Origin: Candidatus Cloacimonadota bacterium
GTDB lineage: Bacteria > Cloacimonadota > Cloacimonadia > G963667145
DNA length: 64,000 nt
Reading direction: 5' to 3'
Assembly: GCA_963667145.1 (NCBI GenBank)
Contig: OY762943.1
Location: 498,122-562,121 of the forward strand
Shown piece by piece: positions 47,213-48,741 of the stretch. The position numbers were made by a program. Numbering within the stretch: the stretch's first letter is position 1; every line of letters starts with the position of its first letter.

Positions 47213-48741
47213 TAACCAGAATTCTCTCGAACACCTGAGGATACTCTCCTCACCCACCTGAGTCGGTTTGGGGTACGGTCTGTTATGACATAAACGCTTA
47301 GAAGTTATTTCTTGGCAGCACTATAGGTGGACTTTGCGAGCTTAAGCTCTCGTCCTGTGTCTCAGAATATTGCTCGGCGGATTTGCCAACCGAACTTCTT
47401 ACGCACATTCAACACCACTTTCAGCCGGTGTCTCCACTGCAACGCTGCGTCACTCCATCACTTCCCATAACAGGTTCTGGAATATTAACCAGATTCCCAT
47501 CAGCTACCCTGGAAACCAGACTCGCCTTAGGGGCCGACTAACCCTGAGCAGATTTTCTTTACTCAGGAAACCTTGGGTTTTCGGTGTGCGGACTTCTCAT
47601 CCGCATTATCGCTACTCATGCTAGCATTCTCTCTTGTAGCCACTCCAGCATCTCTTACAAGACACCTTCAACGCCGACTACAATGCTCTCCTACCCCAAG
47701 CACCTATTTTTAACTTCAAACTTTATCAGAATTTTCTACTCTTTTCAGGAGGTATCTCCTTGAGTTTCCATTCTGTTTCAGCATTCTTTCTCTTTTTCTC
47801 GCATCACTCTCGGATAAGTAAGCTTCATAATATATAAGCTTCCATTCTCCAGCTTGAGTATATTTACTCTTGCCACTTAAATGCTCAAAAATTCTACGCT
47901 CTAAATCGTTGGTGTATCCTATATAATGCAAATTTCTATTCAAATCTTTCAATAGATATACATAGTACATAGTTACTCCTTAAATTCAAAATTAAAAATA
48001 GGTGCTTGGCCGCGATTTCGGTATTATACTTATCAGTCCCGATCATCTTCGGTGCATTACCACTTAACCAGTGAGCTATTACGCACTCTTTAAATGATAG
48101 CTGCTTCTAAGCTAACATCCTGGCTGTCTTTGCAATAAAACATCCTTTCTCACTAAGTATAAATTTAGGGACCTTAATCGTCGGTTAGGGATCTTTCCCT
48201 CTCGCCCATGGAGCTTATCCCCCACAGACTGTCTCCCTTACATCAAATTACGGTATTCGGAGTTTATTAAGGTTCGGTAGGCTTGTAGGCCCCCTAGCCT
48301 AATTAGTGCTCTACCCCCGCAATTCTAATAAGAGGCACTGCCTAAACAGTTTTCGGAGAGAACCAGATATCGCCCGGTTTGATTGGCCTTTCACCCCTAC
48401 CCACAGCTCATCCACTGATTTTTCAACATCAGTTGGTTCGGTCCTCCATTTGGTTTTACCCAAACTTCAACCTGGCCATAGGTAGATCACCGGGTTTCGG
48501 GTCTAATCCTGCCAACTAAACGCGCTATTAACACTCGCTTTCGCTTCGGCTCCATCACTTTATGATTTAACCTTGCTGACAAAATTAACTCGCTAGCTCA
48601 TTATACAAAAGGCACGCCATCCCAAGCACATATTTAACCCCCACAAACTATAATCTCTTATAAAATCTATAAGAATTAAATATGTGCTTGGTCTGACTGA
48701 TTATAAACATACGGTTTCAGATACTATTTCACTCCCCTTCC

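Follow-up and report, generated by a model that had tools for sequence, protein, structure and literature searches.

A GIY-YIG nuclease gene within a hairpin-bounded intervening sequence of a Cloacimonadota 23S rRNA gene and its relatives in other phyla

Classical intervening sequences (IVSs) of 23S ribosomal RNA (rRNA) occur in Salmonella, Campylobacter, Leptospira and Coxiella, where they lie at helix 25 or helix 45 and are excised by RNase III. To our knowledge, how such sequences originate and spread has gone unexplained since their discovery. Here we analyze an IVS with an 84-amino-acid (aa) GIY-YIG open reading frame (ORF) in a 23S rRNA gene of a Candidatus Cloacimonadota bacterium (assembly GCA_963667145.1, contig OY762943.1, positions 498,122 to 562,121). 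This stretch of 64,000 nucleotides (nt) is referred to as the window, and positions are numbered within it. The closest described elements belong to three groups. Among the classical IVSs, the Coxiella IVS is a 428-nt helix-45 element that contains an ORF and is cut by RNase III; its S23p ORF is described as undergoing reductive evolution and as apparently not made in vivo (PMC4990558). IVSs confined to a subset of operons, two of them with transposases, have been reported by Pei et al. (2009, PMC2672173).

The second group comprises rRNA insertions of candidate phyla radiation (CPR) bacteria, which carry GIY-YIG ORFs and are not group I or group II intron-like (Tsurumaki et al. 2024, PMC11270868). 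According to the main text of that study, they occupy several sites in poorly conserved helices, their spread by homing is judged unlikely, and their first sighting is credited to Brown et al. 2015. The third group is that of the Ssn family (CDD cd10448), with a 94-aa single-domain GIY-YIG protein whose gene is flanked by SRM/NTS hairpin repeats in a layout resembling that of an insertion sequence (Chenal et al. 2025, PMC11893778). Ssn enzymes are reported to cut single-stranded DNA (ssDNA) site-specifically beside the cognate repeat and to be inactive on double-stranded DNA and RNA. The words 'rRNA' and 'ribosomal' are absent from the main text of PMC11893778.

The insert in the window combines features of the published CPR GIY-YIG rRNA inserts, the classical IVSs and the Ssn-type cassettes, and its host, a member of the Cloacimonadota, lies outside the CPR. 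As in the CPR inserts described in the main text of PMC11270868, a GIY-YIG ORF lies in a non-intron rRNA insertion and the insertion sites are scattered. The hosts differ, and most of the rRNA-borne loci described below (25 of the best 80) also come from phyla outside the CPR. Conserved hairpin ends, same-ended ORF-less partners and free-standing copies do not figure in the passages of that paper that were consulted, and its Tables S3 and S4 may list more. With the classical IVSs the insert shares its form, a stem-loop without a ribozyme at a helix-25/45-type tip, its presence in only some operons and species, and the occurrence of an RNase III gene in the genome (234.5 bits, cut-off 166.25). 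However, its cargo is a GIY-YIG nuclease rather than an S23-IVP four-helix bundle, the same ends recur at four helices, and the ORF appears strongly selected whereas the Coxiella ORF is reported as decaying (PMC4990558). An earlier interpretation made without database searches (the sequence-only reading) had taken coding IVSs to carry, as a rule, four-helix-bundle proteins, and homing endonucleases in bacterial 23S genes to sit in group I introns; this background was incomplete, given the GIY-YIG ORFs published in non-intron rRNA insertions of CPR bacteria (PMC11270868). With Ssn, as presented in the main text of PMC11893778, the insert has in common a GIY-YIG protein of ~90 aa without any other domain and a gene bracketed by conserved inverted repeats. 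Unlike those of Ssn, the flanks here are the two arms of one long hairpin with another core, and there is no genome-wide expansion of the repeat. Searches of literature that mostly excludes subscription journals found neither the hairpin-ended family nor any non-CPR GIY-YIG IVS described, and the supplements of PMC11270868 and PMC11893778 may bear on this point.

The sequence-only reading had described an 84-aa minimal GIY-YIG ORF in the rRNA sense with an AAGGAG motif 5 nt ahead of its ATG, filling the loop of an 18-base-pair (bp) stem and leaving no room for a ribozyme core. The locus agrees with this description in each respect (Table 1). The two arms of the closing stem are 28 nt long, 86% complementary and separated by 258 nt; the outer 18 bp are perfect and the 28-bp stem as a whole is imperfect. 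The insert region folds at −93.2 kcal/mol compared with −61.9 ± 5.0 kcal/mol for shuffled sequences (z −6.3), and none of 100 shuffles folded as well. It forms an extra stem-loop, devoid of a ribozyme, in place of a variable rRNA helix tip. A group I or group II intron was rejected as the identity of the insert because no intron family matched the window at the gathering score or the insert alone at an expectation value (E) ≤ 10; the insert alone gave four weak RNA-family matches at this E value, none of them to introns. At 47733-47761 on the minus strand, in the 3′ part of the ORF, the DUF805b RNA motif scored 24 bits, below its gathering score of 35.6; this match coincides with a small GGAG..CTCC hairpin and probably arose by chance.

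The window 23S gene is 3310 nt long, compared with 2925 positions of the Rfam model, with ~45 extra nt in the domain I hairpin, ~55 nt at ~model position 583 and ~290 nt between positions 1218 and 1219. By position, the last two sites correspond to the classical helix-25 and helix-45 IVS sites of the E. coli scheme, and the first to either helix 9 or helix 10. All three inserts, one with the ORF and two without, are closed by the same stem sequence, which bears out the shared-stem family envisaged in the sequence-only reading. Each hairpin starts with CCAAGCAC(C/A)TATTT, ends with its complement and replaces the native hairpin exactly at its base; the arm of the helix-25-type insert carries a compensated C-to-A / G-to-T change. 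The genome consists of one contig of 1.54 Mb, in which the 14-nt arm has six exact copies, all belonging to these three hairpins, and three one-mismatch matches elsewhere; a control pattern gave 1.

This genome possesses two 23S genes and a single copy of the GIY-YIG ORF. The second 23S gene (G000:C1:1385093-1388005), 2913 nt in length, has none of the three inserts. The two genes are identical at 2890 of 2913 aligned positions, with just 2 differences away from the insert sites. Being present in one of the two operons, the insert is sporadic as expected of an IVS. Assembly contigs with the empty and the insert form have depths of 336.8 and 323.1 in one run and 29.6 and 30.6 in another, ~1:1, and contigs from both runs (X1 and X2) join 47695 to 48010 with 24 other letters between, which is the empty form. 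As both forms reach similar depth in two runs, misassembly does not account for the difference between the operons, and the empty allele is a stable one.

The 84-aa protein matches the Pfam GIY-YIG family PF01541 over residues 1–73 with 58.9 bits (cut-off 22.6) and an E value of 6.1e-16. The Pfam scan of the ORF returned GIY-YIG-type families only, and the S23-IVP four-helix-bundle domain (PF05635) was not among them. The superfamily residues Y5, Y16-I17-G18, R26, H30 and the metal-binding E61, which the sequence-only reading had listed as retained (Y, YIG, R, H and E), are conserved in an alignment of 40 homologues. In this alignment Y3, Y5, Y16, G18, T20, R26, Y47, E49, D56, R60, E61 and K65 are invariant and H30 nearly so. 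E61 aligns with a Glu of UPF0213 BH0048, and Y5, Y16 and E61 correspond by position to Y6, Y17 and E64 of SsnA, the residues mutated in that enzyme (PMC11893778). An AlphaFold2 model built on the 40-homologue alignment has a mean predicted local distance difference test (pLDDT) score of 92.2, and its elements, E2-9, E15-20, H23-32, E43-51 and H54-66, follow the beta-beta-alpha-beta-alpha order of the GIY-YIG fold.

The nearest solved structures by sequence profile are UPF0213 BH0048 (E 3.6e-12) and EF2693 (3.7e-8), with Slx1 at 0.002-0.03. A Foldseek search with the model placed 1zg2 at rank 1, and ranks 2-11 are HIGLE and Slx1 structures plus 1ywl (EF2693) at rank 4, with TM scores of 0.57-0.69. 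I-TevI and UvrC matched much more weakly than UPF0213, Slx1 and HIGLE, and the NCBIfam model of group I intron endonucleases, TIGR01453, gave 20.6 bits (E 3.7e-4) against a cut-off of 56.05. On account of these nearest neighbors, the weak I-TevI and UvrC matches and the sub-threshold TIGR01453 score, the protein is, by sequence and family, a bare catalytic domain of the UPF0213/Slx1-like branch, a nuclease by family membership that lacks a DNA-binding domain. The UPF0213 structures have no assigned function, whereas Slx1 has an additional RING domain and a partner, Slx4. We know of no rRNA or hairpin context for either.

The 3′ end of the 16S rRNA of the window operon holds CCTCC, to be set against the AAGGAG ahead of the start codon. 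The ORF was compared with its counterpart in a second species of the genus (G002; the window genome is G000), yielding proportions of synonymous and nonsynonymous differences (pS and pN) of 0.647 and 0.084 and a dN/dS ratio of 0.06, with synonymous sites near saturation. Judged by these sequence divergences, the ORF is under strong purifying selection. The arms of the two ORF-bearing inserts are identical, and together with the low dN/dS ratio this indicates that both protein and arms are constrained.

Matches to the protein at E ≤ 1e-3 were found in 36 of 61 related genomes. Of 29 loci retrieved from this search, the top four, from G002, G001, G011 and G009, are located within 23S genes, and no rRNA is seen near the other 25; the ORFs of G011 and G009, which belong to another family, contain in-frame stops. 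In a protein database, at least 1000 proteins of 46-147 aa matched at E ≤ 1e-3, many of them from very short contigs. A species-level scan (one genome per species, with a 10-sequence alignment) confirmed 577 of 599 candidate stretches, and the best 80 were used further. Twenty-nine of these 80 show rRNA similarity: 25 lie inside 16S or 23S genes, all in the rRNA sense, three adjoin a 16S gene and one, L060 at a 23S 3′ end, is ambiguous. The sites in 23S are helix-25-type (15 loci), helix-45-type, ~1891/1903-1916, ~1740/1796 and ~129/166, and those in 16S are ~68/98 and 467/510. The recorded hosts include Planctomycetota, Deferribacter thermophilus, SAR324, Desulfobacterales, Bacillota, Lagierella massiliensis, Methylotuvimicrobium, Arenicellales, Alteromonadaceae, Lysobacterales, Gammaproteobacteria, Alphaproteobacteria, Actinomycetota and several Patescibacteria.

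Together with the four best loci from the related genomes, the 25 loci make up 29 rRNA-borne copies, 24 of which are intact and five broken. A Shine-Dalgarno (SD)-like 4-mer precedes 15 of the 29, compared with 313 of 2160 control windows. In a protein tree of 91 of 109 rows (108 loci and the window protein; 18 rows were dropped because of stops, lack of an ATG or a length outside 65-125 aa), the rRNA-borne copies cluster, with 8 state changes, and the clusters mix phyla and insertion sites. The label 'free' requires 9 changes compared with a mean of 24.6 among shuffles, and none of 500 shuffles was as low. As judged by sequence comparison, it is solid that the window insert belongs to a family of hairpin-bounded cassettes extending over many phyla, with roughly one in three located in an rRNA helix tip.

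Two contigs of isolate assemblies, L087 (290 nt, Lacimicrobium) and L094 (350 nt, Desulfotomaculum), consist of the cassette alone. Such contigs would be expected if the cassette lay in only some of the rRNA operons and interrupted the assembly graph, and the counts of rRNA-borne copies are therefore probably underestimates. Locus L054, from a metagenome-assembled genome labelled archaeal, has the cassette in a 23S gene whose flanks are 73-75% identical to the bacterial 23S of the window and whose arms are identical to those of L063 from Desulfobacterales; the bin is probably mis-assigned. Three GIY-YIG paralogues from another family of the phylum (L020, L023 and L037) have the same sequence, resembling a tRNA 3′ end, on both sides of the gene, which suggests that they lie between copies of a transfer RNA (tRNA) gene or at an attachment site derived from one.

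The ends of the cassettes were analyzed over the 108 loci. At most of them the best inverted repeat has one arm in the 5′ flank and the other at the 3′ end of the ORF, and the gaps are tight, 0-20 nt ahead of the start, with the 3′ arm overlapping the stop. About a third of the loci have a stem bearing the core CCnnGCAC, which is followed by an A/T-rich run, and the core of the window arm is common to relatives in other phyla. A near-perfect 12-bp helix with the core C-N-N-[GCT]-C-A-[CT], a pattern defined after the data had been looked at, surrounds the ORF at 38 of 108 loci compared with 2 of 2080 random placements. A motif-free tally of 6-mers placed CCAGCA, CCCAGC, CAGCAC and AGCACT at the top upstream, in 11-13 of 75 loci versus 0-2 in ~150 control windows, and the same four are at the top of the reverse complement of the downstream flank. 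GCAC upstream combined with GTGC downstream occurs at 27 of 75 loci and in 8 of 275 controls. Stem positions past the core are paired in 94-100% of 31 distinct elements by 3-6 pair types; thus structure is conserved along ~19 bp and sequence in the core only. Around the ORFs of 20 strong-stem loci away from rRNA no Rfam RNA gene was found, and just 5 tRNA genes lie nearby. In two Patescibacteria genomes the core occurs 11 and 9 times, versus 3 and 1 times for the control.

Similar ends were also seen without the nuclease gene. Two intergenic ORF-less hairpins of 92-104 nt (L161:1540-1631 and L162:1494-1597) have the same arm core and come from Patescibacteria genomes that also possess an ORF-bearing copy. 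In a Patescibacteria genome (G162), a hairpin with the same core, L163:1520-1653, encloses a complete tRNA-Ala(CGC) gene and not the nuclease gene, which could be cargo capture or a role of the stem in RNA processing. A separate clade of small GIY-YIG proteins from Verrucomicrobiota (L095, L097, L108, L113, L116, L118 and L124) is associated with a different conserved, GC-rich palindrome of the CCGCGTAAAAGGCTTCGCCTCACGCGG type, and these sequences suggest that each nuclease clade may have its own cognate hairpin. A more distant GIY-YIG paralogue from the same phylum as the window (L040, G022:C2:1372601-1372813; 36% identity) lies between 49-nt inverted repeats that by eye resemble the published NTS/SRM hairpin of Ssn genes; the transcribed SRM pattern gave no match to them.

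Twelve 23S genes from six species of the genus were compared (G000 and G001 to G005, each with two genes, a and b). Same-ended hairpins, ORF-bearing and ORF-less, occur in varying combinations at four helices: domain I, ~268, helix-25-type and helix-45-type. G000a is empty at all four. In the window gene, G000b, the inserts measure 52 nt in domain I, 55 nt at the helix-25-type site and 290 nt, with the ORF, at the helix-45-type site, and ~268 is empty. Site ~268 is the only one occupied in G001, by 50 nt in G001a and by 287 nt with a 57%-identical ORF in G001b. G002a has 59 nt at ~268 and 285 nt with a broken ORF at the helix-45-type site, with nothing at the other two, and G002b is filled at all four (65, 58, 64 and 289 nt in the order given above, the last with an 86%-identical ORF). 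Both genes of G003, G004 and G005 have only inserts of 38-50 nt at ~268. The ORF form therefore resides at the helix-45-type site in G000 and G002 and at a different one (~268) in G001, and an rRNA-borne ORF is found in 3 of the 6 species. Relative to the G002b copy of the ORF, that of G002a has lost 4 nt and carries one missense and one nonsense change.

The arms at site ~268 fall into two lineages, AAGCAC and TGRYAC, and in G001 as well as in G005 these alternate between the genome's two operons. ORF-less loops at different helices of the same genome have identities of 0.70-0.86 (n = 4), compared with a mean of 0.57 (n = 16) for loops at the same helix in different genomes, where the maximum of 0.95 is that of the orthologous G001a/G005a pair. 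The loops of G000 and G002 at the same two helices are 0.43 and 0.56 identical. Because ORF-less loops from different helices of one genome are more alike than loops from one helix in different genomes, the comparison points to whole hairpins having been copied or converted between helices at the DNA level. These alignments support the view that the shared-stem family behaves as DNA moving or being exchanged between helices and genomes.

We regard the insert, with confidence slightly better than even, as a hairpin-bounded single-gene selfish cassette that takes the place of a dispensable 23S helix tip. Its inverted ends pair into a long stem continuing the rRNA helix, and the loop holds a ribosome-binding site and the 84-aa GIY-YIG gene in the rRNA sense. 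The stem would let the precursor rRNA fold and RNase III trim it, as in classical IVSs, so that the insert would be tolerated by the ribosome. The ORF may be translated from the rRNA transcript or the released fragment, using the rRNA promoter and the SD sequence. By analogy with ssDNA cutting by Ssn and with the structure-specific Slx1, the nuclease might recognize the conserved ends or their hairpin or cruciform DNA and might thereby help entire hairpins to be copied or exchanged from one helix, operon or genome to another. The sequence-only reading had proposed a non-splicing homing or selfish cassette. Its selfish, non-splicing part is consistent with a non-intron coding IVS, a real selected gene and a stem family that appears to move or be exchanged, but classical homing is not supported, as the empty allele persists, a DNA-binding domain is lacking and the sites vary.

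Several observations weigh against a selfish cassette. The genome has a single copy of the ORF and three hairpins, and its second 23S gene is empty at all three sites; hence any spread must be slow or rare here. No target-site duplication is visible at the inserts, where the native hairpin is replaced, and selection for working rRNA could also give replacement without target duplication. The tRNA-Ala gene inside the same type of stem fits a role at the RNA level at least as well as one at the DNA level, and the processing, translation and nuclease action of the cassette are predicted. The published degenerate SRM pattern has 0 matches in the 64-kb window, and only 1 of 108 loci has a match 200 nt or less from its ORF. 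The protein tree was calculated from 87 columns, and 42 of its 86 inner branches are unresolved. In addition, the short IVSs are not established as deletion derivatives of the ORF form. In 10 loop-versus-ORF comparisons, which left out G000_C and G002_C against their own ORFs, eight matches were ordinary (reached by 64-253 of 500 shuffles). The domain I IVS and the ORF have an exact match of 14 nt, equalled in 2 of 500 shuffles, and the match of one G002 loop was equalled in 12 of 500. With only these 2 of 10 comparisons at ≤ 12 of 500 shuffles, the ORF-less loops resemble the interior of the ORF little, and the ORF-less hairpins are not clearly derived from the ORF form by deletion.

A broader version of the cassette reading is put forward tentatively, as an idea more apt to fail than to hold. 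The arms plus a ~80-aa GIY-YIG gene would constitute a previously unrecognized minimal mobile element, in which an Ssn-like hairpin-recognizing nuclease would be the sole protein needed to copy or swap DNA hairpins. Heavily transcribed, hairpin-rich ribosomal DNA would be its favored landing site, and many ORF-less IVSs and small-gene hairpins would be non-autonomous relatives.

The main rival explanation, which we consider unlikely while giving it real weight, is that the gene is a passenger. The stem would be an RNA processing and expression module, cut by RNase III so as to release and stabilize the content of the loop, and the nuclease would be cargo useful to the host (for instance in repair or against foreign DNA) that exploits the strong rRNA promoter and has no part in movement. 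The strong purifying selection on the protein, the single copy of the ORF and its sense orientation in all 29 rRNA-borne relatives as well as in the window agree with this explanation. So do the occurrence of a tRNA-Ala gene and of short loops lacking an ORF inside stems of the same type, the S23-IVP spacer gene of both operons, likewise within a 42-nt inverted repeat, and the proposal that the Neisseria Ssn nuclease is domesticated (PMC11893778). Against a host-useful passenger speak the patchy distribution (in the genus, 3 of 6 species have an rRNA-borne ORF, and in this genome one operon of the two), the broken copies in G002a, G009, G011, L104 and L114, and the sharing of related proteins at different sites across phyla. 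Nor are RNase III substrates expected to conserve stem-core sequence across phyla, as the double-stranded core does here.

A classical site-specific homing endonuclease gene, whose product would cut the IVS-less helix-45 allele and have the insert copied in by repair, appears improbable. The GIY-YIG family does include homing enzymes, both 23S genes of G002 have the insert at the same site, and there is the weak similarity to TIGR01453 (E 3.7e-4). That similarity nevertheless amounts to 20.6 bits against the cut-off of 56.05, and the 84 aa leave out a DNA-binding domain of the I-TevI or Seg type. The gene does not reside in a self-splicing intron, and the empty allele has not been converted; it is still found on the chromosome that carries the insert, with contig depths about equal in two runs. 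Close relatives occupy unrelated targets, at least 6 sites in 23S and 2 in 16S. On these three grounds (allele, domain and sites), classical homing is disfavored. A decaying relic, in which the ORF of an ancient insertion would have stayed open fortuitously and would now serve no function, is very hard to credit with a dN/dS ratio of 0.06 near synonymous saturation, catalytic residues invariant in 40 homologues and 24 of 29 rRNA-borne relatives intact, even though a nonsense change and the loss of 4 nt disrupt one G002 copy and the product of the Coxiella S23p ORF, which is reported to be in reductive evolution, is reportedly not made in vivo (PMC4990558).

A selfish cassette family of this kind may account for the origin and spread of some IVSs. 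The coding IVS and its ORF-less partners have in common ends that are conserved in several phyla and linked with a nuclease whose relatives are known to act on hairpin DNA; this offers a concrete and testable mechanism, and the occurrence of GIY-YIG rRNA inserts is extended past the CPR bacteria. One operon with three inserts and one with none provide a natural filled-versus-empty pair, to which the genus adds turnover among its species. If the nuclease recognizes its arms as ssDNA, the family would offer new specificities for the Ssn-type toolbox.

Table 1 Coordinates of the rRNA operon, its 23S inserts and the spacer gene in the window.
Feature	Position	Strand	Evidence or remark
16S rRNA gene	50159-51724	(-)	
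Two tRNA genes		(-)	
S23-IVP gene, 115 aa, between spacer tRNA genes (16S-23S), rRNA sense	49603-49950	(-)	PF05635, E 2.6e-29
Arms of 42-nt inverted repeat around S23-IVP gene	49538-49579 / 49975-50016		81% complementary
23S rRNA gene with three inserts	46001..49310	(-)	Rfam RF02541, 2734.5 bits, model positions 1-2925
ORF-less IVS, 70 nt, domain I hairpin (Rfam model 151-177), identical arm	49092..49161	(-)	Insert at ~model position 166
ORF-less IVS, 70 nt, helix-25-type site, arm with one compensated change CCAAGCACATATTT	48622..48691	(-)	Insert at ~model position 583; 16 bp at 100%
314-nt IVS, helix-45-type site, in place of native 24-nt hairpin	47696..48009	(-)	Between Rfam model positions 1218/1219
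Closing stem, 5′ arm (RNA sense), starts CCAAGCACCTATTT	47982..48009	(-)	Inverted repeat and fold pairing with 3′ arm
AAGGAG, Shine-Dalgarno-like, right after 5′ arm, 5 nt ahead of ATG	47976..47981	(-)	
GIY-YIG gene, 84 aa, single-domain, rRNA sense, ATG at 47970	47716..47970	(-)	
TGA stop of GIY-YIG ORF, inside 3′ arm	47716-47718	(-)	
Closing stem, 3′ arm, covering final ORF codons and stop	47696..47723	(-)	Inverted repeat and fold
5S rRNA gene	45825-45941	(-)	

The S23-IVP gene in the 16S-23S spacer has a 97%-identical copy in the spacer of the other rRNA operon. As this spacer gene is enclosed by a hairpin too, the window operon holds both kinds of 'IVS protein', each in its own hairpin. 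PF05635 genes are present in 120 of 151 sampled genomes of the phylum, with up to 26 per genome. The flanks of 30 PF05635 loci (L131-L160) were inspected, and a flank design shared with the GIY-YIG cassette was rejected, since many of them have tandem-repeat arrays in place of CCnnGCAC arms. At many of these loci the two flanks carry inverted arrays of short tandem repeats, for example 7-mers with their complement downstream, which would form long imperfect hairpins around the genes.

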